A DNA stretch of 64,000 nucleotides, taken from positions 727 through 64,726 of the forward strand of contig WRBI01000009.1 in NCBI GenBank assembly GCA_009784625.1, given 5' to 3'. This DNA comes from Oscillospiraceae bacterium. GTDB lineage: Bacteria; Bacillota; Clostridia; Oscillospirales; Ruminococcaceae. Below, one piece after another: positions 4,371-46,135 of this stretch (positions are counted from its first letter, which is position 1; each line of letters starts with the position of its first letter). Below the pieces are notes generated by a model. The model saw only the letters and a program-made list of their open reading frames with translations, ran no database searches and was not told the origin of the DNA. The position numbers and the translations under genes were made by a program.

Positions 4371-5279
4371 TTACTTGTCTTTGAGCAGGGTGACCAGCAC
4401 GGCTTTTTGGGCGTGCAGGCGGTTTTCGGCTTCGTCGATAATCTCGGGATGGGCATCCATGATCTCGGCGGTGATCTCTTCACCGCGGTGAGCGGGCAGG
4501 CAGTGGAGGACGATGGCGTCCGGTTTTGCGTGTGTCATCAGGCTGTCGTTGACCTGGAAGCCTGCGAATGCTTTCCGGCGGGCTTCGGCCTGGTCGCCCT
4601 GATCCATCGAAGTCCAAACATCGGTGACGACCACGTCGGCGTCTTTTACCCCCGCGTGGATGTCGTCGGTGATTTTGAACGCGGGGTTGTCTTTTGCAAA
4701 AGCCATTACGTCCGGGTGCAGCTTGTCGTAGCCCTTGGGCATGGCCATGACCACTTCCATCCCGACTTTGAGGCCGCCGACGGTCAGTGAGTTTGCCATG
4801 TTGTGCCCATCGCCGACAAAGCACATTTTCAGGCCGCTGAGTACTTTTTTGTGTTCGCGGATGGTCATCAGGTCGGCGAGCACCTGACAGGGGTGGAAGG
4901 AGTCGGTCAACCCGTTGATGACCGGAATACTGCCGTATTTGGCAAGGTCCTCAACGTCGCTCTGCTTGAATGTGCGGATCATAATCCCGTCAATATAGCG
5001 GGAGAGGACTTTGGCGGTGTCTTCGATCGGCTCGCCGCGGCCCAGCTGTAAATCGTTGGCCGACAGGAATAGCGGATAGCCGCCCAACTGAACCATCCCC
5101 ACCTCAAAGCTGACCCGTGTGCGGGTTGAGGATTTGGTAAATATGAGCCCGAGGGTCTTGCCTTTCAGGTGGTGGTGTTCGACCCCGTTTTTGGTCTCGT
5201 ATTTGAGCTGGTCGGCCATGTTGAGCAGGCCAATGATCTCGTCACCGGTCAAGTCAAGCAGTTTGAGTAAATGTTGCAT
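4371..5279 (-). CDS. argF: Ornithine carbamoyltransferase
   Basis: STRTR, HPCQ and HCLP motifs; 302 aa. Confidence 0.95.
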   Translation of the reverse strand: MQHLLKLLDLTGDEIIGLLNMADQLKYETKNGVEHHHLKGKTLGLIFTKSSTRTRVSFEVGMVQLGGYPLFLSANDLQLGRGEPIEDTAKVLSRYIDGIMIRTFKQSDVEDLAKYGSIPVINGLTDSFHPCQVLADLMTIREHKKVLSGLKMCFVGDGHNMANSLTVGGLKVGMEVVMAMPKGYDKLHPDVMAFAKDNPAFKITDDIHAGVKDADVVVTDVWTSMDQGDQAEARRKAFAGFQVNDSLMTHAKPDAIVLHCLPAHRGEEITAEIMDAHPEIIDEAENRLHAQKAVLVTLLKDK

Positions 5280-5300
5280 TGGTAACGCGCCTCCTTGGAT

Positions 5301-6482
5301 TTATTGAAATGTTTTAAACACTTGGGTTAGGATGTCCAGCCCGGCATCCAACTCGGCTTTGGTGATGGTCAGCGGCGGCAAAAACCGCAGGCGGTCTTTG
5401 GCGGTGAGCAGCAACAGTCCACGCTCCAGGCAAACCGCGGTAACATCCGAATTTTTGATCCCGTCAGCCAGCGCCGCGCCCAGCATCAGGCCCTTGCCGG
5501 ATACCTCGGTGATCTCGGGTATGGATTCCAGCTTTTCGCGCAGGTAATCGCCTTTGTGGGTGACTTCGGCTAAGAGCGCGTCGTCTATCATATCCATCAC
5601 GGCGTTTGCGCCCGCACAGCAGATGGGGTTTGCTCCGAAAGTAGAGCCGTGATCTCCCGGGCCGAGTGTGGCTGCCAGCTTTTCGCCGAACAGAACCGCG
5701 CCGATTGGCAATCCGCCGCCCAGCCCTTTGGCCAGTGTGACCAGATCGGGCTTGACCCCGTAGTGTTCGATGCACAGGAACTTGCCGGTTCGCCCGACCC
5801 CGGTCTGGATTTCATCCACCATCAGCAGGATATCCCGCTCCGCGCAGAGCGCGGCGACTGCGGCCATATAGTCCGGCTCAACCGGTATTACCCCGCCCTC
5901 GCCCTGTATGCACTCAAGCAGGATCGCGCCGACTTTGCCGGTGCACTTTTTGCGCAGGCTGGCGATGTCGTTGATCTCAGCAAAGGCAATCCCGGTCAGG
6001 AAAGGCCCGAAGTGTTTGTGGTATTGCGGCTGCCCGGTGGCTGAGAGGGAGGCCATTGTCCGGCCATGGAAAGAGTTTGCGAGGCATAAAATCTCGCTGC
6101 GCTCGTTGGGATAGTGGTCACTCATGTACTTGCGGGCGGTTTTGATGGCGCACTCGTTTGCCTCTGTCCCCGAATTGGAGAAGAAGACCCGCGACATACC
6201 GGTTCGCGCGCAGAGTTTTTCGGCCAGTTCGATCATAGGCCGGGTGTAGTAAAGGTTGGAGACATGCGCGAGTTTGGCCGCCTGCTCGGTGACCGCGCGC
6301 ACCCACGCGGGATTGGCGTGCCCGACCGAGACCACCCCGATCCCGGACGAGAAATCGATCAGCTCTTTCCCCTGTGCGTCGGTGAGGGTTGCCCCGACAC
6401 CTGACTCGATCAGGGTTTGCTGCCGGGCGTAAGTACCCGCGATGTGTGCCGCGTCTTTCCCGCGCAATTGCTCAAAGGTCAT
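5301..6482 (-). CDS. argD: Acetylornithine aminotransferase (class III PLP)
   Basis: 393 aa with class-III aminotransferase blocks (SNSGTEANE, DEIQTG, TLAKGLGGG). Sits inside the arg operon. Confidence 0.93.
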   Translation of the reverse strand: MTFEQLRGKDAAHIAGTYARQQTLIESGVGATLTDAQGKELIDFSSGIGVVSVGHANPAWVRAVTEQAAKLAHVSNLYYTRPMIELAEKLCARTGMSRVFFSNSGTEANECAIKTARKYMSDHYPNERSEILCLANSFHGRTMASLSATGQPQYHKHFGPFLTGIAFAEINDIASLRKKCTGKVGAILLECIQGEGGVIPVEPDYMAAVAALCAERDILLMVDEIQTGVGRTGKFLCIEHYGVKPDLVTLAKGLGGGLPIGAVLFGEKLAATLGPGDHGSTFGANPICCAGANAVMDMIDDALLAEVTHKGDYLREKLESIPEITEVSGKGLMLGAALADGIKNSDVTAVCLERGLLLLTAKDRLRFLPPLTITKAELDAGLDILTQVFKTFQ

Positions 6483-6504
6483 GTTATCCCGCCTTTGTGT
6501 GATT

Positions 6505-7368
6505 TTATACTCTGAACATAGTCCCGATGCCCTCGTTGGTCATCAGTTCGATCAGAATCGAGTGTGGGATTCGCCCGTCAATGATAAACGCTTTTTTGAC
6601 CTCCTGCCGGACAGCCAGCACACAGCTCTCGATTTTGGGGATCATCCCGCCTGAGATGATGCCGTCCCGGATGAGTGCGGGTACATCGCTGATGTTGACT
6701 TGGTGGATGAGTGTGCTCTCATCGCTGCGGTCGGTCAAAAGCCCGGCTACGTCGGTCATCAGAATCAATGTCTCGGCTTTGAGCGCACCGGCAACAGCGG
6801 CGGCGGCCGTGTCCGCGTTGATGTTGTAGACGTTCCCTTCGCTGTCCCCGCCGACGGTTGAGATGACCGGGATGTAGCCCCCGGCCAGTTGGTCGTGAAT
6901 GACGGACGCGTTTACCTCGGTGATCTCGCCGACATAACCAAGATCGACGTCGCCCCCCATTTTTTTAGCGGTGATCAGCCCGCCGTCCAGCCCGCAAAGA
7001 CCGATGGCTTTGCCGCCGTTCCGGGTGAGCAGGCCGACCAAATCTTTGTTGGTTTTGCCCGCCAGCACCATCTGCACGACTTTGGCGGTTTCTTCATCGG
7101 TGTAGCGCAGGCCGTTTACGAATCTGCTTTCCATATTCATCTGGCCGAGTGTGGCGCTTATTTCAGGGCCGCCGCCATGTACCAGAACGACTTTGATTCC
7201 AATCAGTGAGAGCAGCACAACGTCGCTCATCACAGCCTGTTTAAGCTCGTCGCTCTGCATGGCGTTTCCGCCGTATTTGATGACCACAACTTTGCCGAAA
7301 TACTTTTGGATGTAAGGCAACGCCTGAATCAGAACATTTGCTACCGTTTTGTTGTCGATGTCTATCAT
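6505..7368 (-). CDS. argB: Acetylglutamate kinase
   Basis: 287 aa with VIKYGGNAM and VLVHGGGP motifs; arg operon context. Confidence 0.95.
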   Translation of the reverse strand: MIDIDNKTVANVLIQALPYIQKYFGKVVVIKYGGNAMQSDELKQAVMSDVVLLSLIGIKVVLVHGGGPEISATLGQMNMESRFVNGLRYTDEETAKVVQMVLAGKTNKDLVGLLTRNGGKAIGLCGLDGGLITAKKMGGDVDLGYVGEITEVNASVIHDQLAGGYIPVISTVGGDSEGNVYNINADTAAAAVAGALKAETLILMTDVAGLLTDRSDESTLIHQVNISDVPALIRDGIISGGMIPKIESCVLAVRQEVKKAFIIDGRIPHSILIELMTNEGIGTMFRV

Positions 7369-8591
7369 GTGCGATAATCTCCGTTAATCTTTACATAGTC
7401 GTAGCTCAGGTCACAGCCCCAGGCCACCGCGCCGCCATCCGCCTGATTTAGCTCAACCTGAATTTCAATTTCTTCGCAGGCGAGAACTTTCGCCGCCTCG
7501 TCCTCCGAGAAAGGTAGCCCCCCGCCATTTTGGTAAACGGTGACCTCCCCGCCCTGTGAAACCAGTGTGACTTTAGTCCCGGCCGGGTCGAAGTCGGCGC
7601 TCGCATAGCCCATAGCGCAGAGAATCCGGCCCCAGTTGGCGTCCTCGCCAAACATCGCGCACTTGACCAGATTAGAGCAGATGATCGACTTGGCAAGTAC
7701 ACCTGCGGTTTTGTCGTCGACAGCGCCGGTCACAATGCACTCAAGCAGTTTGGTCGCGCCCTCGCCGTCCCGGGCCATAATCCGCGCGAGATAGATACAG
7801 ACGTGTGTGAGCGCTTTTACAAAGAGATCGTAATCTTCGCCGTGACCGGTGATCTCGTCATTGCCGGCCAAACCGTTTGCCAAAATCGCGCACATGTCGT
7901 TGGTCGAGGTGTCGCCGTCTACACTGACCATGTTAAATGTTTTTGGGACGACCATCCCCAGCGCTTCTTTGAGCATGTCGGATGAGACGGCTGTGTCTGT
8001 GGTCAAAAAGGCGAGCATAGTGGCCATGTTCGGGTGAATCATCCCCGAGCCTTTTGAGATTCCGCCCAGTGTACAAACTTTGCCGTTTAGCTCGAAAGAT
8101 ACGGCCACTTCTTTTTCCCGCAGGTCGGTGGTCATGATGGCTCTGGCCGCTGCCTTACTGCCGGCCGGCTGTGCGCTGATCCCCTTGACCAGTTCGGTCA
8201 TCGCGCCCTCAATGAGTGAGACATTCAGCGGCTGGCCGATCACTCCGGTGGATGCGACAATCACATCCACCGGGCTTAAGTTCAGCGCATTGCCGGTCAG
8301 GTCACACATTCGCTCGGCCACCTGTACCCCGTCGGCATTGCAGGCGTTGGCGTTCCCGCTGTTGCAGATGATGGCCTGTGCCGCGCCGTCTTCCAGATTG
8401 CCTTGTGTAACCTGAATGGGTGCGGCCTGTACTTTGTTGGTGGTATAGCTGGCCGCCGCCGTACAGGGTACTTTGCTGTAAATCAGAGCCAGGTCACTCT
8501 TGTCCGTGCGTTTTGCCAGTCCACAGTGGACGCCCCCAGCCAGAAACCCGCCGGCCGCGCAAACGCCGCCCTCAACCTGTTTGATTGACAT
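7365..8591 (-). CDS. argJ: Bifunctional ornithine acetyltransferase / N-acetylglutamate synthase
   Basis: ArgJ family with the autoprocessing-site region ATMLAFLTTD. Start set at ATG 8591 (RBS AAGGGAG 8 nt upstream); the ORF track's 8609 start would lie inside that RBS. Confidence 0.93.
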   Translation of the reverse strand: MSIKQVEGGVCAAGGFLAGGVHCGLAKRTDKSDLALIYSKVPCTAAASYTTNKVQAAPIQVTQGNLEDGAAQAIICNSGNANACNADGVQVAERMCDLTGNALNLSPVDVIVASTGVIGQPLNVSLIEGAMTELVKGISAQPAGSKAAARAIMTTDLREKEVAVSFELNGKVCTLGGISKGSGMIHPNMATMLAFLTTDTAVSSDMLKEALGMVVPKTFNMVSVDGDTSTNDMCAILANGLAGNDEITGHGEDYDLFVKALTHVCIYLARIMARDGEGATKLLECIVTGAVDDKTAGVLAKSIICSNLVKCAMFGEDANWGRILCAMGYASADFDPAGTKVTLVSQGGEVTVYQNGGGLPFSEDEAAKVLACEEIEIQVELNQADGGAVAWGCDLSYDYVKINGDYRT

Positions 8592-8642
8592 ATGATGAAC
8601 TCCCTTCAATCACGAATGTTACGATAGGTTCTTTTCCCCACC

Positions 8643-9602
8643 CTATTGTAACACAAGTCCGGTGTCTTCGGGAAGACCAAAAGAGATATTCATGCACTGA
8701 ATCGCGCCGCCTGACGCACCTTTTCCCAAATTATCGAACCGGGCGGCCAGAATGGCCCGCTCGCGGTTCCCGCAGACGAATATTTCCAGATCATCCCGGC
8801 CGGCCAGTGCCTGCGCATCCAGCATGGTTTCAGGCAGGGATTCCTCTGCCTGCCAGCCGCGGACTTTGACCAGCTTTTGCCCGGCATAATAATCAGAGAA
8901 GAATTGGTGGAGTTCTTGCGCGCTGAGCGGTTTTTGCAACAGTCGCAGGTGAATGGGAACAGTGACCACCATCCCGGCGTAAAAGTCGGCGATGATCGGA
9001 TTGAAAGCCGGCGGGTGGGCAAGCCCGGATATCTTTTGCATTTCGGGTAAGTGTTTGTGGTTTTGTGTGAGCGCGTATTGGCGGGGGATGGCGTATTCCA
9101 CCGGCCGGTCAGATTGACCATACGCGGCAATCACCGCTTTGCCCGCCCCGCTGAAACCGGTGATCGAGTGAGCGGTAAAAGGGTAGTCGGGCGGCGCGAT
9201 TCCCGCCGCAGCCAGCGGCGCAGCCAGCAAGTTAAACCCGGTAGCGTGACAGCCGGGTACACAGATGCGGTTTGCCGCCGCAATCTGCTCCCGCCGGGCG
9301 GTTGAAAGCTCGGGCAGGCCGTAAGTCCAATCATCGAGTACTCGGTGGGCGGTGGATGCGTCTATGATCTTTACGTTCGGGCTGGTGATTCCGGAAACAG
9401 CGGCCTTTGCGGCTGCATCAGGCAGGCAGAGAAAGACAAGGTCGGCGGCATTCGAAATTTTAGCCTTGGCCGCCTCGTCTTTGCGCAGAGCCGGGTCAAT
9501 CGAAAGGAGCGTCACGTCAGTCCGGCCGCTCAGCCGCTCGGCCAGCCGCAGCCCGGTCGTTCCCTCGCCCCCGTCAATAAATACGCGAATCGGCATGGTC
9601 AA
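8643..9602 (-). CDS. argC: N-acetyl-gamma-glutamyl-phosphate reductase (short, type-2 form)
   Basis: 319 aa with GGEGTTG NAD-binding and PGCHATG active-site Cys. First gene of the argCJBDF string. Confidence 0.92.
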   Translation of the reverse strand: MTMPIRVFIDGGEGTTGLRLAERLSGRTDVTLLSIDPALRKDEAAKAKISNAADLVFLCLPDAAAKAAVSGITSPNVKIIDASTAHRVLDDWTYGLPELSTARREQIAAANRICVPGCHATGFNLLAAPLAAAGIAPPDYPFTAHSITGFSGAGKAVIAAYGQSDRPVEYAIPRQYALTQNHKHLPEMQKISGLAHPPAFNPIIADFYAGMVVTVPIHLRLLQKPLSAQELHQFFSDYYAGQKLVKVRGWQAEESLPETMLDAQALAGRDDLEIFVCGNRERAILAARFDNLGKGASGGAIQCMNISFGLPEDTGLVLQ

Positions 9603-13221: not shown

Positions 13222-13250
13222 TTGACAAACATTCGCAACTGTGCTATCAT
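13222..13250 (+). promoter_or_regulatory. Sigma-A type promoter for the T-box leader
   Basis: TTGACA (13222-13227), 17-nt spacer, TATCAT (13245-13250). Confidence 0.6.
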
Positions 13251-13261
13251 CATTCACATAA

Positions 13262-13506
13262 ATTCAGAGAGAGACTCCGTCCAGTCGGAAACCTTGTCAG
13301 AGAGCCGGTCGCCGTGGCTGAAAGCGCCGGTCAGGGGAGTAGTGGAACGGGCAACACTCTTTCGGTGATTCTAAAACTGTCCGTGTGCACAAATACAGTC
13401 GCCGCGGACAAATATTAAAGTTGGGCGCTAAGCGTCAATGTGGGTGGCACCGCGGGAGATTTCTCGTCCCTCAAAAGCAGCAATGTTTTTGAGGGATTTC
13501 TATTTT
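13262..13506 (+). promoter_or_regulatory. T-box riboswitch leader; candidate specifier AAC (Asn) at 13353-13355
   Basis: Elements seen: AGAGAGAG at the Stem I base; an AGTA box at about 13338; GC-AAC-A abutting CTCTTT, which can pair with AGAGAG; T-box sequence AATGTGGGTGGCACCGCGGGAG (13437-13458); terminator TCCCTCAAAA/TTTTGAGGGA (13467-13496) plus TTTCTATTTT. Confidence 0.85.
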
Positions 13507-13523
13507 GTCTGGAGGTTTTGGGA

Positions 13524-15263
13524 ATGAATAAGTACAGAACACACAACTGTGGAGAACTCGACAAAGGCAGCGTCGGTCAGCGGGTTAGGCTGGCCGGTTG
13601 GGTTGACACAATCCGCGACCACGGCGGGGTGGTTTTTTTGGACCTGCGCGACCATTACGGGATGACCCAGGTTGTGGTCAACGACGAGAACCTGATTAAA
13701 GGCATTGGCCGCGAGTTTGTGGTCAGCGCCGAGGGCGTTTTGCAAGAGCGGGCGGCCGACACGGTCAACCCGAAACTGACAACCGGCGAAGTCGAATTAA
13801 AAGTTGAGAGTGTCGAAATTTTAGGCGAATCTCACCGCCAGCTCCCTTTCGAAATCGCGCACTCGACACAAACCCGCGAGGATGTTCGACTCAAATACCG
13901 ATTCCTCGATTTGCGCAATCCGGAGCTTCACCAAAATATCGTAATGCGCTCGAAAATCACCAATTATCTGCGCGCAAAAATGGAGGAACTCGGCTTCTTG
14001 GAGTTCCACACGCCGATCTTGACATCCTCTTCACCGGAGGGCGCGCGGGACTATCTTGTTCCCAGCCGCAAGCATCACGGCATGTTCTACGCACTGCCCC
14101 AAGCGCCCCAGCAGTTTAAACAGCTTTTGATGGTTTCCGGATTTGACCGGTATTTCCAGATCGCGCCTTGTTTCCGGGATGAGGATGCCCGGGCCGACCG
14201 CTCGCCCGGTGAGTTTTACCAGTTGGATTTTGAGATGGCGTTTGCCACGCAGGAAGATGTTTTCGCGGTGGCCGAAAAAGTAATGTGCGACACATTTTCG
14301 CACTTTTCCGACAAAAAAGTCAGCCCCGCGCCGTTTAAGCGGATACCGTTTGCCGAGGCTATGTTAAAGTATGGGACAGACAAACCGGATTTACGAAATC
14401 CGCTGTTAATTGAGGATTTAACCCAGTTCTTTTCGGGGGTGGGTTTTGCGCCATTTAGGGGTAAACCTGTGCGCGGAATTGTTGCGCCGGGCTGCGCGAA
14501 ATCCTCCAAGTCATTCTTCGAAAAAATGCTTGCGTTCGCTACCGAAATAGGGATGAAAGGGCTGGGTTACATCTCCGTTTTAGAAGGGATGGAGCTCAAG
14601 GGTCCGATTGTAAAATTCCTTTCTGCACAGCAGCAAAAAGAGTTAATTGACTCACTTTCGCTCAAAGAATATGACACACTATTCTTTATCTGTGATTTGC
14701 CGAAACTGGTGGATAAACTGTCTGGTCAAATACGCGCAGAACTCGGAAAAAGATTGGATTTAATCGCGACAGACTCGTTTGAATTTTGTTATATCACCGA
14801 CTTTCCGATGTTTGAGGCAGATGAAGAAACCGGTGCGGTTGCGTTCACGCACAACCCGTTCTCAATGCCGCAGGGAGAAATGCAGGCACTCGAAAGCATG
14901 GACCCGCTTGAAATCAAAGCATATCAATATGATATTGTGTGTAACGGGGTCGAACTCTCGTCGGGTGCAGTTCGCAATCATCGACCTGATGTGATGATCA
15001 AAGCGTTCGAAATCGCGGGTTATTCAAAAGAAGTAATTGAGAGCAAATTTTCGGCACTTTTTAATGCCTTCCACTACGGCGCTCCGCCTCATGCAGGTAT
15101 GGCGCCCGGGCTTGATCGCATAGTTATGCTGCTCACCGGAGAAGAGAGTATTCGCGAAGTCGTCGCGTTCCCAATGAACAGCAATGCGCAAGATTTATTA
15201 TTGGGTGCGCCGTCTTCTGTCACAGAGCAGCAGCTTCGCGATGTTCACATTAAAATCAGGTAA
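13524..15263 (+). CDS. aspS: Aspartyl-tRNA synthetase, bacterial type; probably non-discriminating given the operon context
   Basis: Start at ATG 13524 (MNKYRTHNCGEL). Class II motifs FRDED, QLDFEM and GLDR are present; 579 aa. The ORF-track extension to 13440 runs through the T-box terminator. Confidence 0.93.
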   Translation: MNKYRTHNCGELDKGSVGQRVRLAGWVDTIRDHGGVVFLDLRDHYGMTQVVVNDENLIKGIGREFVVSAEGVLQERAADTVNPKLTTGEVELKVESVEILGESHRQLPFEIAHSTQTREDVRLKYRFLDLRNPELHQNIVMRSKITNYLRAKMEELGFLEFHTPILTSSSPEGARDYLVPSRKHHGMFYALPQAPQQFKQLLMVSGFDRYFQIAPCFRDEDARADRSPGEFYQLDFEMAFATQEDVFAVAEKVMCDTFSHFSDKKVSPAPFKRIPFAEAMLKYGTDKPDLRNPLLIEDLTQFFSGVGFAPFRGKPVRGIVAPGCAKSSKSFFEKMLAFATEIGMKGLGYISVLEGMELKGPIVKFLSAQQQKELIDSLSLKEYDTLFFICDLPKLVDKLSGQIRAELGKRLDLIATDSFEFCYITDFPMFEADEETGAVAFTHNPFSMPQGEMQALESMDPLEIKAYQYDIVCNGVELSSGAVRNHRPDVMIKAFEIAGYSKEVIESKFSALFNAFHYGAPPHAGMAPGLDRIVMLLTGEESIREVVAFPMNSNAQDLLLGAPSSVTEQQLRDVHIKIR

Positions 15264-15296: not shown

Positions 15297-15578
15297 ATGA
15301 GCTTGTTGGAAATCAGTAAATATGAATCTTTGACAAAACTTAATTTGACTGAAATTGAGCGCACACAGATCGAAAAAATCGCAAATAAATTGATTGTAAG
15401 TTTTGAAGATTTACGCGAAATTGATACGAAGAATGTTGAACCACTGGTCAGTGTTTTGGTTTTGCAAAACGTTCTCAGAGAAGATATAAATGTGAAGTCG
15501 ATATCACGTGAAGAACTTTTGTCTAATGCCCCCGAACAATACGGCGGGTACTTCCAAGTCCCGAAAACTTTGGATTAG
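15297..15578 (+). CDS. gatC: Asp/Glu-tRNA amidotransferase subunit C
   Basis: 93 aa with AGGAGG RBS. GatC pattern VEPLVSVL..NVLREDI...NAPE...FQVPK. Confidence 0.9.
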   Translation: MSLLEISKYESLTKLNLTEIERTQIEKIANKLIVSFEDLREIDTKNVEPLVSVLVLQNVLREDINVKSISREELLSNAPEQYGGYFQVPKTLD

Positions 15579-15588
15579 GAGGATATGT

Positions 15589-16698
15589 ATGGAGCGTTTT
15601 GTGAGAAGTGAATCGGCTGGAAAAAAAGATGCAGTTGCGCTTGAACAATGCATCATGGAAAAAGGAAAACCGGCAACTTCGGGTTCGAAGATGCTGAATA
15701 ATTTTACTGCACCATTCGACGCTGAAGTTGTATCCAGATTGAATGCAACTGACACATCGATTGCTGGAAGAGTGGAAATGCGCGAGTTTGCAGTTGGAGG
15801 GAGTTTTTTCGACACGCAATTTGGATCGCCCGCAATTGAGGCTTTACTTGCCGGTGATGCTGGTTTTGCGTTGTGCAGTGATGTTTTCGGCGAGATACGA
15901 AGCAAAGCGCCGATGGCTGGGCTGGCATATATTCACCCCACTTATGGCTCAGTTTCGCGATATGGATTGATTCCGCTTGCCGCGTCAATGGATCAGATTG
16001 GCGTGCTCTGTAAGGGCTTGGAAGCTGGCTTTCAGCTGCTCTCAAAGATTGCTGGAAGTGACCTGAAAGACGGCGCAATGTTGTCCGAAAAAGAGTATGA
16101 ATATACAAAAATCAATCGTCGGCTGAGAATAGGAATTCCGACAAAAATAGTTGCGCTTGCAAGCGAAGCTGACCAAACTGCAATCAAAAGTTTTTGTGCA
16201 AATTTTGAAACAGAAAATATTGACTTAACGCATTTTGAGATCGCCAAGCAAGTGATGACAATTCTTGCTTTCGCGGAGGCTAGTAACAATATAAGCCGTT
16301 ATGATGGAATCAAATTTGGTTATCGTGCAAATGAATACAAAAACTTGGAGGAATTATACGTGAGAAGCCGCAGTGAGGGCTTCGGATTACCAGCGAAATT
16401 GGCGGCAATTATGGGAACTTATGTGCTTTCAAGAGATCAGTACGAATCTTATTATGAAAAAGCGATGAAGGTTCGCAGACTCATTAAAAACTCTTTTGAA
16501 TTTGATAAATATGACCTCATCGTGTTGCCTTTATCAATCAGCGATGATGCTTATGAAAATCTCTCATTATATGCTTTATCTCCGCTTGCCGGATTGCCTT
16601 CGGTCTCATTTCAATATGAAGGTCAAGGAATACAGTTGATCGCAAATTCTAAAGATGAAAATGCGCTAATAACTGCTTGGGAGGTGGCGCAAGCATGA
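15589..16698 (+). CDS. gatA: GatA-like amidase-fold subunit, shortened and apparently lacking the Ser-cisSer-Lys amidase signature
   Basis: AGGAGG RBS 5 nt before ATG 15589, and an ATGA overlap with gatB. GatA-like blocks: SKMLNNF, PFDAEVV, MREFA, HPTYGSVSRYGL, SMDQIG, RYDGIKFGYR, SEGFG. The GGSSGGS loop is absent, and GGS-IRQPA reads FGE-IRSKA. Confidence 0.8.
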   Translation: MERFVRSESAGKKDAVALEQCIMEKGKPATSGSKMLNNFTAPFDAEVVSRLNATDTSIAGRVEMREFAVGGSFFDTQFGSPAIEALLAGDAGFALCSDVFGEIRSKAPMAGLAYIHPTYGSVSRYGLIPLAASMDQIGVLCKGLEAGFQLLSKIAGSDLKDGAMLSEKEYEYTKINRRLRIGIPTKIVALASEADQTAIKSFCANFETENIDLTHFEIAKQVMTILAFAEASNNISRYDGIKFGYRANEYKNLEELYVRSRSEGFGLPAKLAAIMGTYVLSRDQYESYYEKAMKVRRLIKNSFEFDKYDLIVLPLSISDDAYENLSLYALSPLAGLPSVSFQYEGQGIQLIANSKDENALITAWEVAQA

Positions 16699-18131
16699 AG
16701 TACGAAATTGTAATGGGACTTGAGGTTCATGTTGAACTTTCAACTCAATCGAAATTATTTTGCGGATGCTCGGCGAAGTTTGGCGCGGATGCAAATGATA
16801 ATGTGTGCCCGGCTTGTGCTGGAATGCCTGGAATGCCAGCCGTGACCAATCAAAAAGCTGTCGATTTGGGGATTGATGCGGCAATTGTCACAAACAGCCA
16901 GATCACGCGAACGATGACATTTGATAAGAAAAATTACTTTTATCCCGACCTGCCGACCAGTTATCAGATTACACAATGGTTTGCGCCGATTTGTCGCAAT
17001 GGTTGGGTAGAAATTGAAACGGAGCGCGGGAAAAAGAAGATCACTTTAAAACAAATTCACATCGAAGAAGACGCGGGAAAAATGGTTCATGACGCCAGGA
17101 GCGGAACATCGATGTTAGATTTCAATAGGACCTCGGTTCCATTGATTGAAATTGTCAGTAATCCGGACTTTCGTGATGCTGAAGAAGTAATCGACTACCT
17201 TGAAAAGCTGCGCGCTTTACTCAGTTTCGCGGGCGTTTCTGATTGTAAAATGCAGGAAGGTTCGATGCGATGTGATGTGAACATTTCAGTTCGCCCAGCC
17301 GGCTCAGAAAAACTGGGTGTGCGAACCGAAATGAAGAATATGAACTCGCTTAAAGCAATCACGGCTGCGATCGCTTTTGAGGCAAACCGGCATATTGACG
17401 CGATTGAAACCGGCAGCGAAGTGCTCATTCAGGAGACTCGCGGCTGGGATGATGATAAAGGCATCACTTTCTCGATGCGCGAAAAAGAAGATGCAACCGA
17501 CTATCGCTATTTCCCAAATCCGGAACTGATGCCGATTGTGATTAGCGACGAGTGGATCGAGCGGGTGCGGTCAAGTTTACCTGAGACTTCGCAAGACAAA
17601 TTTGTGCGAATGACACAGACTTTAGGTTTACCGGAATACGACTCAAGTATCATCACCCGAAGCAAGGCGCTCGCCGATATTTTTGACCAGACAATGGCTC
17701 ATTTCGATAAACCGAAAGAAGTTGTGAACTGGATAATTGTCGAACTTTTAGGGATCGCAAAAGGCGATAACAAAGGTGAAGATGATATCAGGATTGACTG
17801 CAGAAAGTTCGCGGACCTCATCCGGCTGGTTGATGAAAAAGCGATCAATCGCAATGTCGGAAAGAAACTGTTAATTAAGGTTCTTGAAGAGGATGTCGAT
17901 CCTGAAAATTATGTGAAAGAGCACGGCTTGGGGATGCTCACCGATACTTCGCTGATCGACAAAGCCGTAAGCGAAGTATTGGCTGAAAATCCCAAATCGG
18001 TCGCAGAATTTAAAGAAGGAAAACTAAAAGTCGTCGGGTTTTTGATGGGACAGATCATGAAGAAAATGGGCGGCAAAGCAGACCCGGAAGCAGTCAAAAG
18101 TATTCTGCAAAGCCAGCTGGATCAGCTTTAA
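16695..18131 (+). CDS. gatB: Asp/Glu-tRNA amidotransferase subunit B
   Basis: MKYEIVMGLEVHVEL, NYFYPDLPTSYQITQ, IHIEEDAGK and DYRYFPNPEL blocks, plus a C-terminal YqeY-like tail. 478 aa and looks intact. Confidence 0.93.
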   Translation: MKYEIVMGLEVHVELSTQSKLFCGCSAKFGADANDNVCPACAGMPGMPAVTNQKAVDLGIDAAIVTNSQITRTMTFDKKNYFYPDLPTSYQITQWFAPICRNGWVEIETERGKKKITLKQIHIEEDAGKMVHDARSGTSMLDFNRTSVPLIEIVSNPDFRDAEEVIDYLEKLRALLSFAGVSDCKMQEGSMRCDVNISVRPAGSEKLGVRTEMKNMNSLKAITAAIAFEANRHIDAIETGSEVLIQETRGWDDDKGITFSMREKEDATDYRYFPNPELMPIVISDEWIERVRSSLPETSQDKFVRMTQTLGLPEYDSSIITRSKALADIFDQTMAHFDKPKEVVNWIIVELLGIAKGDNKGEDDIRIDCRKFADLIRLVDEKAINRNVGKKLLIKVLEEDVDPENYVKEHGLGMLTDTSLIDKAVSEVLAENPKSVAEFKEGKLKVVGFLMGQIMKKMGGKADPEAVKSILQSQLDQL

Positions 18132-32904: not shown

Positions 32905-35900
32905 ATGAAACGTATACTTAGCTTACTGATTGCCGCTATCATGGTGGCCACAATTTTACCGATTGACGCCGACGCGCGATTTCCCGGGCGGCCGCGGCCG
33001 ACTCCGCCTCCCCAAACGAGTGAGGAGGCCCCCGCGCCAACGCCGCCGGCACCGCGACCGGCGCCGCGCACAGCCACGCCTGCGCCCGCGAACGAGGTGA
33101 CGCCTGTGCCTGCGGATGACCCTGACCCGCCGCCGGTACCGGGGCCGTGGACGGTGACGTTTAATACCGGACGCACTGACTGGACTGTACAACCGTTAAC
33201 CGGCACTACAGCTGTTGTGAATGGCGCGTTCATTACTGAGCCGACCGCCGGTCGCCCTACACCCGCTGATTATACATTTGAGGGCTGGTATGATGGCCCC
33301 AATTTCACCACTGCGACCCGATGGGTCTTTTCCACGATGCCCGTAACAGGAGATTTGAATCTTCATGCGCGGTGGGAACCAGTCATGCGTAGAGTTGACT
33401 TTGTTACTGGCTCGGGTAGCGGAGATCCAAATTCTCACGCAATGATTCATCACGGCACTCAGATCCCTCCTATCCATTTGATGTCACCTCTCCCAATCCC
33501 AGACCCGGTTCACAGTTCCCTCGATTTGTGGCGATTTGATGGTTGGTACAATGGTGATACCCGATGGGTGTCAGGTAATCCCGTAACCGAAAACATCACG
33601 TTAACCGCACGGTGGACACAACGATTCCTTGTCGAGTTTAGACCGAATGCCAATGTGCCAGCCGCAGGAGAACTTACTCCTACATCTCAAACGGGGGCTC
33701 TATCAAATGGGAGTTTGTTTCGTCGTGTCCCTAGCGGTGATACAATAGCTGACTCAGGCCCTTGGCCTACAGTTCGATCCACCCACCCTGAATATGGATT
33801 TGAAGGGTCTGTTGCGAATCGAAATCGCTGGAGTAACAGCAGAAACGAAAACCCTAATATGTGGCGCGAAAATGTCAATGGCACTTTGGCGACTACAGAT
33901 TTACTTCCCAACACCCCAGTTACCCGTAATATGGTGATAGACGCCATATGGCTTCCGGTACATATAGTCACTTTAGATCCCAGCGATGGTGGTTTTGTGG
34001 GTGACTCAGAAACCAGAAGAGTTGTCCATAACGATCAGATTGGAGCACTTCCGATGCCCAGCCGTGCCGGGCATCGCTTTCTCCGGTGGGAGACAACCGG
34101 CGGCACTGTATATACGGCAACCACGCAAGTCGAGCTTGGTACGGGTGTGCTTATGCCGCAAGCATTAACGCTTCGCGCCATATGGACGAATCAAGCCGCT
34201 TCGCACGAAGTTACATTCGAGTTAGATGGCGGCAACATTAACGGGAACACTGACGATGTTATACGAATTGTTGCCAGCGGTGGGATCGTGCAACCACCCC
34301 TGCCGCCGGTACGCGATGGCTTTAGGTTTCTCGGGTGGACTTCGGAGACAGCTCTCCAGTTGCCTATAACCGCCGATAGAACCTTTACAGCCCGATGGGA
34401 AACTGCCCCCGGTCCGTGGGATGTTATGTTTAATCTAGGCCCCGGTACACAGACCGGCGGTGGTGCGCTTGTACAAAGCATTAATCATAACGCTGGCGCA
34501 ACGCTTCCGACCGCAACGCGGACGGGTTATTTTCTTAACGGCTGGCAATCTACACCGACCGGTATGTTTACGAATCAGATCACAGGTAACGTTATGTTTA
34601 CCGCTATATGGGAACCAACCGGCGCAGGCGGTGGAGGCGGCGGAAACGGCGGTGGCACAGACCCCGGCGACCCCGGCCCCGACCCAGGCACTCCCGGTGC
34701 CGGTCAATTTCAAGTTACCTTTATCCCGAACGGCGGTACCCGCACCGGCGGCGGTGCGCTTGTGCAAAACATCAATAGCGGCGCGGCGGCACAGCTTCCG
34801 ACCATTACCCCGCCAAGCGGTCAGGAGTTTGTCAGCTGGCAGTCCAACGTGGCCGGCATGACGCCCGGCAACATCACCGGCACTGTCACGTTTACCGCCC
34901 AGTGGAGGCCGGCAGGCGGAGGTGGCGGTGGCGGCGGTGGCGGAACCGGCACAACCGGCGGCCGCATCACCGGCGTCAACACCGGCAGCAATCTTGATTT
35001 GGGCAACAACATCTTCTTCCACCGGCGGGGCAGCAACACGGCCATGACCGGCAGCTGGGAGAGCAACATCGACGACACCCGCCCGGGGGATGAATTGCGC
35101 ATCCACCTTCACCCCGACATGTTTGAGTGGGCAGATGGCAATCAGCCCCAGTTTGTTACCCGAAATCATTTGGCCAGCGCAAACCCCAGAATCACGGCGG
35201 GCTTTAACAGAACCGGCTTTGACGCGGTGCGCGATGTTGAGATCAGAAACGGCGCGAACGCGAACGCAAACGCGATCTTGGTTGTGCGCTTTGTCGATTC
35301 GTTCAACAGCACCCGGGACAGAAACTACCGCGCGACCATCTTCCTGCGGGAAGGCAACCGCCGGATCGGCGCAACCGACCTGTCGGTCGACGGGTATATG
35401 CGCGTGAACGCCATGTACGTGGACAGCTACGACGATCTCGATCAAATTGACGGCCGCTGGACGCTGGACATGAGAGACAGTGAATACTCGGTTATCGCGG
35501 TGGGCAGCCGGACATTCCGCCGGGTGGATATCCTGCTCGATTACGGGGTAACGGTTATCACCCCGCTGCCGGCCAACCGCAATGTTGCGATCAGCACAAA
35601 CATGAACGAATCAAACCGCGATGAAGAAGTATATCTGCGGTACAACGCGGTGGTCTCACATGTGCATATCGAGCAGACCGGCCTGAACACCGCGAGCGCA
35701 AGGGTCCGGATCGATATTGACGAACACCCGATGGCCTGGTCGAGCAGGGCGCTTTCTATCCTGCCGATCAACATGCTGACCCTTTCGGTTCACTCGGGGA
35801 TCATGAGCACAAACGCAGGCCGCGGCTTCTTCCTGTATGACCGCGAGCGCAGGTTTGTCGGCCCGGCCGACCGCGAGGTCGACTTCTCGTCAACTTTCTA

Positions 35901-36051
35901 CATTACCGACCGGCGGATCAATATGAGCACCACCGGCGGCAGTGTTGGCATTGAAGACCCGCCGGAGGTTCCCAACTTCCCGACTTTGCCGGCCCCGCCT
36001 CCCGGCACCGGAAACAACAACATGAACCCAAGTACAGGCAGAGACGAATAA
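32905..36051 (+). CDS. Large secreted protein: signal peptide, Pro-rich spacer, about 7 Listeria-Bacteroides (Flg_new/InlB B-repeat type) modules, poly-Gly linkers, and a C-terminal domain of about 370 aa with unknown function
   Basis: Signal peptide MKRILSLLIAAIMVATILPIDADA. Recurrent modules F.GW....T.W......VT.N..L.A.W (for example FEGWYDGPNF...NLHARW, FRFLGWTSE...TFTARW). Linkers GAGGGGGGNGGG and AGGGGGGGGGGTG. A terminator follows directly. Confidence 0.8.
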   Translation: MKRILSLLIAAIMVATILPIDADARFPGRPRPTPPPQTSEEAPAPTPPAPRPAPRTATPAPANEVTPVPADDPDPPPVPGPWTVTFNTGRTDWTVQPLTGTTAVVNGAFITEPTAGRPTPADYTFEGWYDGPNFTTATRWVFSTMPVTGDLNLHARWEPVMRRVDFVTGSGSGDPNSHAMIHHGTQIPPIHLMSPLPIPDPVHSSLDLWRFDGWYNGDTRWVSGNPVTENITLTARWTQRFLVEFRPNANVPAAGELTPTSQTGALSNGSLFRRVPSGDTIADSGPWPTVRSTHPEYGFEGSVANRNRWSNSRNENPNMWRENVNGTLATTDLLPNTPVTRNMVIDAIWLPVHIVTLDPSDGGFVGDSETRRVVHNDQIGALPMPSRAGHRFLRWETTGGTVYTATTQVELGTGVLMPQALTLRAIWTNQAASHEVTFELDGGNINGNTDDVIRIVASGGIVQPPLPPVRDGFRFLGWTSETALQLPITADRTFTARWETAPGPWDVMFNLGPGTQTGGGALVQSINHNAGATLPTATRTGYFLNGWQSTPTGMFTNQITGNVMFTAIWEPTGAGGGGGGNGGGTDPGDPGPDPGTPGAGQFQVTFIPNGGTRTGGGALVQNINSGAAAQLPTITPPSGQEFVSWQSNVAGMTPGNITGTVTFTAQWRPAGGGGGGGGGGTGTTGGRITGVNTGSNLDLGNNIFFHRRGSNTAMTGSWESNIDDTRPGDELRIHLHPDMFEWADGNQPQFVTRNHLASANPRITAGFNRTGFDAVRDVEIRNGANANANAILVVRFVDSFNSTRDRNYRATIFLREGNRRIGATDLSVDGYMRVNAMYVDSYDDLDQIDGRWTLDMRDSEYSVIAVGSRTFRRVDILLDYGVTVITPLPANRNVAISTNMNESNRDEEVYLRYNAVVSHVHIEQTGLNTASARVRIDIDEHPMAWSSRALSILPINMLTLSVHSGIMSTNAGRGFFLYDRERRFVGPADREVDFSSTFYITDRRINMSTTGGSVGIEDPPEVPNFPTLPAPPPGTGNNNMNPSTGRDE

Positions 36052-44485: not shown

Positions 44486-46135
44486 CTATAGCTTAAAGCT
44501 GTCTTTCAGTGTGACAATCCGGTTAAAAGTATTCGGGTGGCGCGAGTCGGCGCAAAAATAACCCGACCGCACAAACTGGAACCGGTCACCCGCATCAGCG
44601 CCCGCCAGCGAAGCCTCAAGCTTACAGCCTTTTAGATGGGTTAATGAGTTTTGGTTGAGATAGTCGAGATAGTTGGCCCCCTCCTCGACATCGCCGACGT
44701 TTTCAAGGGTGAACAGGCCCTCATAAAGCATCAGGTCAGCCTCAACCGCGTGCGCCGCGCTCACCCAATGGATGGTACCCTTGACTTTGCGGCCATCGGC
44801 GGGGGTGTTGTTCCGGGTCTCAAGGTCGGCAGTGCAGATCAGCTCAGTCACGTTGCCTGCGTTGTCGGTGACCACCTGCTCGCACTTGACGATGTACGCA
44901 CCCATCAGCCGAACCTCGCCGCCCTCGCGCAGCCGCTGATATTTGGGCGGCGGGGCAAGCGAAAAATCCTCGCTTTCAATATAAAGGGTGCGGCTGAATA
45001 TGACCTCGCGGCTGCCTGCGTCTGGATCAGTCGGGTTGTTGGGGATGGGGAAAGTCTCTGTCTTATCCTCCGGGTAGTTGGAGATGGTCAGCTTAATTGG
45101 CTGGGATATCGCCATCCGGCGGGGGGCTTCGCGGTTGAGCTCTTCCCGGATGCAGTATTCAAGCAGGCGGATGTCGACCACCGAGAATGTCTTGGCCACT
45201 CCGGCCCGTTTGACAAACTCGACGATCGAACCGGGGGTGTAACCCCGGCGGCGAAGACCGCAAAGGGTGGGCATACGCGGGTCGTCCCAGCCGTCTACCC
45301 GGCCGGTCTCGACCAGTTCGCGCAAATACCGCTTGCTCATGACCGTATAGGTGATGTTCAGCCGGGCAAACTCGTACTGGTGAGGCGGGTGTTCAAACCC
45401 GATATTCTCGACCACCCAGTCGTAGAGCGGGCGATGGTTCTCAAACTCAAGGGAACACAGCGAGTGTGTAATGCCTTCCAGCGCGTCCTGGATGGGGTGC
45501 GCGTAGTCGTAAAGGGGATAGATGCACCATTTATCCCCCTGTCGATGATGGGTCACATGCAGAATCCGGTAGATGGCTGGGTCACGCATGTTCATGTTGG
45601 GCGAAGCCATGTCGATCTTGGCCCGCAGTGTCCTTGCCCCGCCCTCAAACTCGCCGGCCTTCATCCGCTCAAATAGGTCAAGGTTCTCTTCGGGGGTGCG
45701 GTTCCGGTAAGGGCTTTCTTTGCCCGGTTCGGTCAAAGTACCGCGGTATTGGCGCATCTCTTCGGCAGTTAAGTCGCAGACGTATGCTTTGCCGTCTTTG
45801 ATCAGCTTGACGGCGAACTCGTAACAGCGTTCAAAGTAATCGGAGCCGTAAAAGATCCCGCCGTCGGGGACAGCGCCAAGCCAGCGCAAATCCTCCTCAA
45901 TCGAGCGGACAAACTCCTCCTCCTCGTTGACCGGGTTGGTGTCGTCATAGCGCAGGTTAAACCGCCCGCCATATTTTTTGGCGGTGCTGTAGTTGATCCA
46001 GATGGCTTTGGCACTGCCGATATGCAGGTAACCGTTGGGCTCTGGCGGAAACCGGGTGTGAATCTCACGTTTAAAACCGCCGGCCAAGTCCGCGTCAATA
46101 ATATCATGAATAAAGTTCGGAAAAAGCTCGCTCAT
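44486..46135 (-). CDS. glnS: Glutaminyl-tRNA synthetase
   Basis: 549 aa with HIGSAKA (HIGH) and VMSKR (KMSKS) motifs, and GlnRS-type C-terminal beta-barrels. Confidence 0.95.
   Translation of the reverse strand: MSELFPNFIHDIIDADLAGGFKREIHTRFPPEPNGYLHIGSAKAIWINYSTAKKYGGRFNLRYDDTNPVNEEEEFVRSIEEDLRWLGAVPDGGIFYGSDYFERCYEFAVKLIKDGKAYVCDLTAEEMRQYRGTLTEPGKESPYRNRTPEENLDLFERMKAGEFEGGARTLRAKIDMASPNMNMRDPAIYRILHVTHHRQGDKWCIYPLYDYAHPIQDALEGITHSLCSLEFENHRPLYDWVVENIGFEHPPHQYEFARLNITYTVMSKRYLRELVETGRVDGWDDPRMPTLCGLRRRGYTPGSIVEFVKRAGVAKTFSVVDIRLLEYCIREELNREAPRRMAISQPIKLTISNYPEDKTETFPIPNNPTDPDAGSREVIFSRTLYIESEDFSLAPPPKYQRLREGGEVRLMGAYIVKCEQVVTDNAGNVTELICTADLETRNNTPADGRKVKGTIHWVSAAHAVEADLMLYEGLFTLENVGDVEEGANYLDYLNQNSLTHLKGCKLEASLAGADAGDRFQFVRSGYFCADSRHPNTFNRIVTLKDSFKL

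Follow-up and report, generated by a model that had tools for sequence, protein, structure and literature searches.

A 64,000-nucleotide stretch of a contig from an Oscillospiraceae bacterium (WRBI01000009.1, positions 727 to 64,726; hereafter the window) carries, between 13.2 and 18.1 kb of its + strand, four genes that encode a bacterial-type aspartyl-tRNA synthetase (AspRS) and homologues of the three subunits of the amidotransferase GatCAB, in the order aspS-gatC-gatA'-gatB, behind a tRNA-sensing T-box leader (Table 1). The prime marks a shortened gatA homologue which, as read from its sequence, is a pseudo-glutaminase, all residues of the catalytic triad and both glutamine-binding positions having been lost. 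A ribosome-binding site for gatA' (AGGAGG, 15578-15583) lies directly past the gatC stop codon and 5 nt 5' of the ATG, and the gatA' TGA and gatB ATG overlap as ATGA (16695-16698). The first-pass annotation of this DNA had named the gene gatA from these two positional features; its coordinates and the overlap were confirmed, and the peptide strings that it quoted are all present in the 369-residue translation. The accompanying label of a paralogue found no support, as no second gatA was seen within the 64-kb window; among the window's open reading frames scanned against Pfam and NCBIfam there was no second canonical gatA, no asnS, no asnA/B and no second aspS.

The other products of the operon appear sound. 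AspRS scored 775.7 bits against NF001750 (cutoff 443) and contains the Pfam domains tRNA-synt_2, tRNA_anti-codon and GAD. GatC and GatB, which had been judged intact at first reading, both exceed their equivalog cutoffs; for GatB the scores were 599.6 bits against NF004012 (cutoff 338) and 528.7 bits against TIGR00133 (cutoff 314.8), with GatB_N (380.7 bits) and GatB_Yqey (138.4 bits) as its Pfam domains. The order gatC-gatA'-gatB and the stop/start coupling recur at every locus examined, and the four-gene order with aspS was found again in unrelated neighbourhoods; one sub-clade (loci L008, L010, L012 and L013) carries gatC-gatA'-gatB without aspS. Across the loci examined, the operon held no extra conserved gene able to supply a glutaminase.

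GatA' is recognizable as a member of the amidase family (135 bits against Pfam Amidase PF01425, cutoff 27), and its best matches among PDB sequences in phmmer are GatA chains (E 1e-54 to 1e-27), with approximately 31-33% identity to the solved chains. Against the GatA equivalog model TIGR00132 it scored 229.3 bits, below the cutoff of 481.1, and the match begins only at model position 63. Residue losses were read from three concordant alignments, namely phmmer against PDB sequences, a profile of 36 family members, and a MAFFT alignment in which GatA' was set against canonical GatA from genomes; the GatA structures of Staphylococcus aureus (2df4) and A. aeolicus (3h0l) served as references. Some 55-60 N-terminal residues are absent, residue 18 of GatA' pairing with S. 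aureus residue 78, so that the N-terminal shortening of about 65 residues noted earlier stands with a slightly smaller figure. The catalytic lysine, which had been thought impossible to place with confidence, could be placed: the column of Lys79 holds Glu19 (LEQ/LEQC in place of IKD/IKDN), and a residue other than lysine (E, D or other) occupies it in 62 of 62 short-form clusters. A gap of approximately 15 residues removes the segment 'NPW...PGGSSGGS' together with the cis-serine (S. aureus Ser154), and the column of Ser178, the GatA nucleophile (PMC2330236), holds Glu102, GSDTGGSIRQP having become CSDVFGEIRSK. Across the short family the Ser178 column is variable (E, K, Q, R, V, A, G and others). 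The broken amidase signature, the missing GGSSGG loop and the glutamate at the nucleophile, all proposed at first reading, were thus confirmed by both pairwise and profile alignment, and the profile recovered none of the three catalytic residues in the Ser-cisSer-Lys columns.

The losses extend to substrate binding. Arg358 (S. aureus numbering) is replaced by alanine and Asp425 falls inside a deletion; the equivalent residues of yeast GatA, R334 and D418, bind glutamine (PMC4027206). Also missing in the MAFFT alignment are several loops of the substrate pocket and the N-terminal helices that would close it. With the triad, Arg358, Asp425 and the pocket loops gone and the TIGR00132 cutoff missed, GatA' cannot be the glutamine-hydrolysing subunit that defines GatA.

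Table 1. Features of the operon, its leader and the glnS gene (window positions)
Feature	Position	Strand	Remarks
Sigma-70-type promoter-like site	13222..13250	+	TTGACA, 17 nt, TG-extended TATCAT; consensus match only
T-box leader (tRNA-sensing riboswitch)	13258..13474	+	Upstream of aspS; RF00230, model 1-219 in full
Specifier codon AAC (Asn), then purine A13356	13353..13355	+	Specifier Loop; RF00230 codon columns (cmscan alignments)
Conserved T-box sequence GGGTGGCACCGCG	13442..13454	+	Antiterminator bulge; invariant in leader alignment
Intrinsic terminator	13466..13507	+	14-bp stem GTCCCTCAAAAGCAGCAATGTTTTTGAGGGAT, then T-rich tail TTCTATTTTG
aspS	13524..15263	+	Bacterial-type AspRS, 579 aa with GAD domain; presumably non-discriminating
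gatC	15297..15578	+	93 aa, intact; TIGR00135 71.4 bits (cutoff 47.1), PF02686 64 bits
gatA'	15589..16698	+	Shortened GatA homologue, 369 aa; predicted to be catalytically dead (pseudo-glutaminase)
Glu19 codon GAA	15643..15645	+	Column of catalytic Lys (S. aureus Lys79) in the alignments
Glu102 codon GAG	15892..15894	+	Column of nucleophile Ser (S. aureus Ser178) in the alignments
gatB	16695..18131	+	478 aa, intact kinase/transamidase subunit; start overlaps gatA' stop
glnS	44486..46135	-	Glutaminyl-tRNA synthetase; TIGR00440 669.6 bits (cutoff 425.8); Pfam tRNA-synt_1c, 1c_C, 1c_C2

The short form is not peculiar to this genome. More than 100 clusters (90% identity) came up in a word-indexed search; they are 340-385 residues in length and 47-59% identical to GatA', share its architecture and are named 'amidase family protein' or 'GatA' in their sources. 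In an exhaustive hidden Markov model search of 1.84 billion representatives, approximately 62 clusters (50% identity) of the short, dead type ranked ahead of canonical GatA. An identical GatA' protein is present on contigs of three independent samples. The carriers comprise many anaerobic Clostridia, from Oscillospiraceae, Defluviitaleaceae, Caldicoprobacterales and other groups, and are without exception known only as metagenome-assembled genomes or metagenome contigs, and a plasmid collection yielded only canonical GatA matches at approximately 35% identity and no short form.

Within the family, 48 columns are invariant among 36 members, and in two independent close pairs the ratio of nonsynonymous to synonymous substitution (dN/dS, Nei-Gojobori) for gatA' was 0.117 and 0.122; the same pairs gave 0.054-0.064 for gatB, 0.043-0.063 for aspS and 0.14-0.21 for gatC (the comparison between the window and its closest relative, L094, was unusable because synonymous sites are saturated). 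By these ratios gatA' is maintained by purifying selection and is not decaying. A single-chain AlphaFold2 model of GatA' was confident (predicted local distance difference test, pLDDT, 90.4; predicted template-modelling score, pTM, 0.90), and its top structural matches in Foldseek against the PDB were GatA chains, with template-modelling (TM) scores of 0.86-0.89. The only disordered stretch of the model is the site of the former cis-serine loop. At this site some homologues carry unrelated inserts, approximately 35 residues in locus L010 (5863-7224) and a repetitive DAV/DAG-rich stretch in protein P0103; such inserts fit a surface linker without constraint.

What has been retained is canonical in character. 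GatA' keeps 54 of 135 near-invariant columns of canonical GatA (conserved in at least 95%), whereas GatB of these operons keeps 110 of 128, and at equal GatB divergence, pairs of GatA' proteins lie 15-20 identity points further apart than pairs of canonical GatA. Residues conserved in at least 85% of the 62 short clusters are without exception those that canonical GatA also conserves, and there is therefore no sign of a replacement active site; a new active site in GatA' was considered and rejected, since no conserved residue, polar ones included, is specific to the short family. The blocks kept are PTYGTVSRYGL..SSMDQIG, AE.SNN.SRYDGIKFGYR, R.EGFG..K and YY.KA.K.RR.I. The first of these presumably holds the tunnel-lining residues Arg200, Ser208 and Asp211, reportedly given with the S. 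aureus structure by Nakamura et al. in 2006. The constraint on GatA', as judged from these comparisons, is relaxed but specific.

The profile search further turned up longer GatA homologues, full-length or intermediate in size, whose catalytic columns are dead and whose genes lie in gatCAB operons of other metagenomic bacteria. P0155 (452 aa) has kept its N-terminus, has lysine replaced by aspartate and serine by glutamate, and is encoded in a T-box-aspS-gatC-gatA*-gatB operon (L089, 5001-6359), the asterisk denoting such a dead longer form; P0183 (474 aa; Lys to Asp; L087, 5001-6425) and P0192 (491 aa; Lys to Gln, Ser to Cys, with GGAAGGG in the loop; L086, 1149-2624) are both encoded in gatC-A*-B operons. 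Among these forms the GGSSGG loop is either altered, to GGAAGGG, or lost. Loss of the glutaminase thus seems to be wider than the short family. A neighbour-joining tree, which is crude and drawn from a sample skewed to the query profile, groups 40 short clusters in a single clade, to which P0155 and P0146 are adjacent. A stepwise reduction, in which the catalytic residues were lost first and the pocket loops and N-terminal helices thereafter, would fit this tree.

Expression of the operon appears to be governed by asparagine tRNA. At 11 of 12 positions the promoter-like site agrees with the consensus; a TG precedes its -10 hexamer, no better site was seen in the region, and it sits 8 nt 5' of the T-box leader. 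No Rfam family matched the window at gathering thresholds, and the T-box surfaced only in E-value mode, with 37.2 bits against RF00230 (E = 6e-7 in a local search; gathering score 93). Across loci the leaders scored 30.5-52.4 bits (E 1e-8 to 4e-3), all under the gathering score, and by their motifs and scores they are divergent RF00230 members. Homologous leaders precede the operons of L004, L006, L007, L011, L089 and L094, and the same motifs occur in L091-L093. The window leader also has an AGAGA element and the T-box sequence GGGUGGCACCGCG; the 14-bp terminator itself (13466-13497) overlaps the 3' side of the antiterminator and T-box. 'GCAAC' followed by a purine is invariant in six aligned leaders and is present in four further loci, making 10 loci in total. 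The UGGC of the T-box would pair with a GCCA-3' acceptor end, as expected from the known working of T-boxes, and because AAC is an asparagine codon, uncharged tRNAAsn should be the signal to which the operon responds. In L011, an Oscillospiraceae metagenome-assembled genome, the region downstream of the operon also gave a sub-threshold match to Gut-1 RNA (RF01706; 11162-11232, - strand; 44.5 bits, gathering score 50).

Close relatives, located via the neighbouring pgm gene, illuminate the history of the operon. In L094 the T-box and gatCA'B are present; its proteins are identical to those of the window at 88% of positions for AspRS, 87% for GatB, 64% for GatC and 58% for GatA'. L095 (9001-13366) and L096 (661-5228) have pgm-aspS at the same place with AspRS 84% identical, and possess neither a T-box leader upstream of aspS nor gatCAB. 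From this contrast it appears that aspS has been inherited vertically and that the T-box and amidotransferase genes on either side of it are gained and lost jointly. In L096 an asparaginase gene (PF00710) is convergent with aspS. Comparison of AspRS proteins linked and not linked to the amidotransferase yielded only two differing columns, A24S and Q371R, both unremarkable, and brought out no signature of non-discrimination. GatCAB is partnered by a tRNAAsn with a U1-A72 pair; no tRNA gene was found in the window.

The GC content of the operon is 0.46, against 0.55-0.58 in its flanks. At third codon positions (GC3) it falls along aspS (0.69, 0.64, 0.61, 0.51, 0.48, 0.48) and remains low in gatC (0.39), gatA' (0.38) and gatB (0.48), whereas the neighbours pgm, dnaJ, dnaK, argS and comM lie at 0.67-0.74. 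This trough is restricted to the operon of the window, other loci of the family having no such contrast, and may reflect local replacement or AT-biased drift. Horizontal transfer of the whole cassette, to which the GC content could point, was weakened as a candidate, because AspRS and GatB are closest to those of L094, AspRS was not chimeric in any 100-residue block, and aspS is syntenic with relatives that have no gatCAB; AspRS and GatB look vertically inherited from these comparisons.

A different synthetase linkage was seen in canonical operons. In L014, L017, L019 and L021-L029, from Lachnospiraceae and other Clostridia, a class II synthetase gene of 440-480 codons lies upstream of gatC in a canonical gatCAB operon; its product is only 25-32% identical to bacterial AspRS and is probably an archaeal-type AspRS or an asparaginyl-tRNA synthetase (AsnRS). 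The short-GatA' family, unlike those operons, uses the bacterial-type AspRS.

The window also encodes a glutaminyl-tRNA synthetase (GlnRS), whose nearest named homologues are from Oscillospiraceae and Anaerotruncus at 77-80% identity and so put the host in this group. With GlnRS at hand, amidation of Glu-tRNAGln is unneeded, and only the conversion of Asp-tRNAAsn to Asn-tRNAAsn is left for the amidotransferase; the same reasoning has been applied to bacteria that hold both GlnRS and GatCAB (PMC4206432). The operon is best explained as a module for the supply of Asn-tRNAAsn, with uncharged tRNAAsn as the signal that turns it on.

As to how such a module would obtain its nitrogen, we favour, by a modest degree, an amidotransferase acting on Asp-tRNAAsn, with free ammonia as the amide donor and GatA' in a structural role. 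AspRS, presumably non-discriminating and encoded by an adjacent, co-transcribed gene, would charge tRNAAsn with aspartate, and GatB would phosphorylate and then amidate the aspartate on the tRNA. GatA', GatB and GatC are expected to form a complex in which GatA', although unable to hydrolyse glutamine, would be kept as a non-catalytic partner that together with GatC folds and stabilizes GatB, and in which it probably also continues to make up GatA's half of the ammonia tunnel. Because GatA' no longer hydrolyses glutamine, the amide nitrogen would come from free NH3/NH4+, which would come in either by way of the vestigial glutaminase pocket, now open, or at GatB itself; the deletions of the N-terminal helices, cis-serine loop and pocket loops would open the old pocket. 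There are precedents for the parts of this scheme: the folding and assembly of GatA, GatC and GatB are mutually dependent (PMC2330236, PMC4027206), NH4Cl replaces glutamine in transamidation by GatFAB (PMC4027206), and the N-terminal domain of GatF covers the glutaminase site, its truncation having raised NH4Cl-driven transamidation (PMC4027206). The first-pass annotation had listed a structural-only A subunit and an ammonia-dependent amidotransferase as separate readings; the two are mutually compatible, and that they jointly form the best explanation is a view we hold with slightly better than even confidence.

Several considerations weigh against ammonia as the donor. Outside the 64-kb window the genome may encode a further donor enzyme, be it a canonical GatA, a GatD-like asparaginase or some other. 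Free ammonia is not known to sustain GatCAB activity in vivo. In addition, the GatB proteins partnered with short GatA' (in the window and in L004-L013) share the changes L48P, P49A, G147S, E156N (SEPD to SNPD), Q233H, R78K and S93T, which hit positions near-invariant in canonical GatB; these replacements may reflect a remodelled A-B interface or tunnel.

Among the other explanations, GatB and GatC could use an active donor subunit encoded elsewhere, such as a GatD-like asparaginase or glutaminase or a canonical GatA supplied by another locus, with GatA' as an alternative, regulatory or competing subunit that is not catalytic. Evidence on this genome is limited to the 64-kb window, L096 has an asparaginase gene adjoining aspS, and several gatCAB copies are known from C. 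acetobutylicum (cited in PMC4206432). We nevertheless regard an unlinked donor as unlikely, if deserving of attention: gatA' is coupled to gatB through the ATGA overlap and co-conserved with it at every locus, neither the operon nor its flanks hold a conserved donor gene, the GlnRS of the window leaves no need of a canonical GatCAB for Gln-tRNAGln, and the locus with the asparaginase gene is one that has no gatCAB. The altered positions of GatB, together with the loss of the nitrogen-supplying half, could instead signal a changed reaction, in which the complex no longer amidates but binds or phosphorylates Asp-tRNAAsn for sequestration, for quality control or on the way to a different tRNA-bound product. 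We give this little credence, given that most of the GatB changes are conservative and the great majority of its near-invariant residues remain, that the putative Mg2+-binding residues His12, Glu124/125 and Glu152 can be read from its translation, that it lies far over its equivalog cutoffs with a dN/dS of 0.05-0.06, and that a tRNAAsn-sensing T-box and linkage to aspS fit a supply of Asn-tRNAAsn.

It is also conceivable that ammonia is still released by GatA' acting as a hydrolase, either on another substrate or through a non-canonical mechanism, as the model keeps the amidase fold and the charged residues D98, R104, R124, D135, E230, R237, D239 and K270 are still conserved. These belong, however, to a set of conserved residues shared in full with canonical GatA and containing no new polar member; the nucleophile column is variable, the oxyanion/cis-serine loop is deleted or replaced by unrelated inserts, and the loops and N-terminal helices that closed the pocket are gone, which makes residual hydrolysis very improbable. 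Lastly, a short protein with no catalytic residues, encoded like gatC at a GC3 low for this genome, might be taken for a decaying second copy, as the first-pass annotation had suggested, or for a sequencing or assembly artefact. Such a reading deserves practically no weight and is refuted by the dN/dS of 0.12, the confident fold prediction, the conserved ribosome-binding site and intact stop/start overlap, the identical protein in three samples, and the hundreds of undisrupted homologues of like length.

The operon bears comparison with several known systems. The canonical GatCAB complexes of S. aureus (2DF4) and A. aeolicus (3H0L) have the same gatC-gatA-gatB gene order, and by score the GatB and GatC described here are true equivalogs of theirs; GatA' shares the fold of canonical GatA (TM 0.88) and its blocks PTYGxVSRYGL..SSxDQIG, RYDGxxYGYR and R.EGFG, but is shortened, has no triad and evolves faster relative to GatB. 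The aspS-gatCAB operon of C. acetobutylicum likewise places a clostridial gene for a non-discriminating AspRS and gatCAB under a T-box, for the tRNA-dependent synthesis of Asn/Asn-tRNAAsn, and Saad et al. in 2012 (J Biol Chem 287:20382) reportedly described its response to tRNAAsn; its GatA is presumably canonical, unlike the dead, shortened GatA' found here. The extra AspRS and GatCAB copies of that species are linked to the switch from acidogenesis to solventogenesis (PMC4206432).

Yeast mitochondrial GatFAB with truncated GatF offers a functional likeness, in that its transamidase half runs on ammonium once the glutaminase step is bypassed, and can do so at a higher rate when the glutaminase site is uncovered or destabilized (PMC4027206); those are engineered mutants with an active GatA, whereas the loss in GatA' is natural, complete and evolutionarily fixed. 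AtzE-AtzG (PDB 6C62; TM 0.76-0.78 to the GatA' model) is also an offshoot of GatCAB that has kept a part for a structural reason. It is the reverse case, however, as the AtzE amidase is active and GatB has been lost, while here GatB looks active and the amidase appears dead. Asparagine synthetase AsnA, as opposed to AsnB, and the NH3-dependent NAD+ synthetase (NadE) follow the same logic, the glutaminase having been dropped in favour of free ammonia; AsnA and NadE simply have no glutaminase domain, whereas in the present operon the dead domain persists as a pseudoenzyme subunit of its own. In genomes that encode AsnA, AsnRS is the enzyme used, so that Asn-tRNAAsn formation is glutamine-independent in them as well (PMC2330236). 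A dead, degenerate or shortened GatA, or an ammonia-dependent GatCAB, was not described in the literature searched, which was that outside subscription journals; NCBIfam holds no dedicated model for short GatA', and the PDB no such form.

Two further regions of the window were recorded in passing. On the - strand at 4371-9602, upstream of comM and pgm, lies a cluster for arginine biosynthesis (argC, argJ, argB, argD and the gene for ornithine carbamoyltransferase) that is syntenic in L094 and L095. On the + strand at 32905-36051 is encoded a 1048-residue protein in which the Listeria-Bacteroides repeat PF09479 is the sole recognized domain, and which is probably a surface protein.

GatCAB is the textbook case of a glutaminase coupled through an ammonia tunnel to a tRNA-bound reaction, and the GatA glutaminase has been treated as indispensable and considered as a drug target. 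A widespread, dead GatA under purifying selection implies either that transamidation runs on free ammonia in vivo or that there is an unknown nitrogen donor. A naturally glutamine-independent amidotransferase that spans a whole lineage, in which GatA turned stepwise into a pseudoenzyme and Asn-tRNAAsn is made from ambient ammonia under the control of a tRNAAsn-sensing T-box, is to our minds an evenly balanced prospect. The active, the full-length dead and the shortened dead forms provide a natural series for the passage from catalytic subunit to scaffold. Metabolic reconstructions that count short gatA' as part of a glutamine-dependent GatCAB would misjudge nitrogen flow. If the enzyme is driven by ammonia, the supply of Asn-tRNAAsn in these organisms would be tied to environmental ammonia and not to the glutamine pool, and nitrogen would enter the machinery of the genetic code by a new route.

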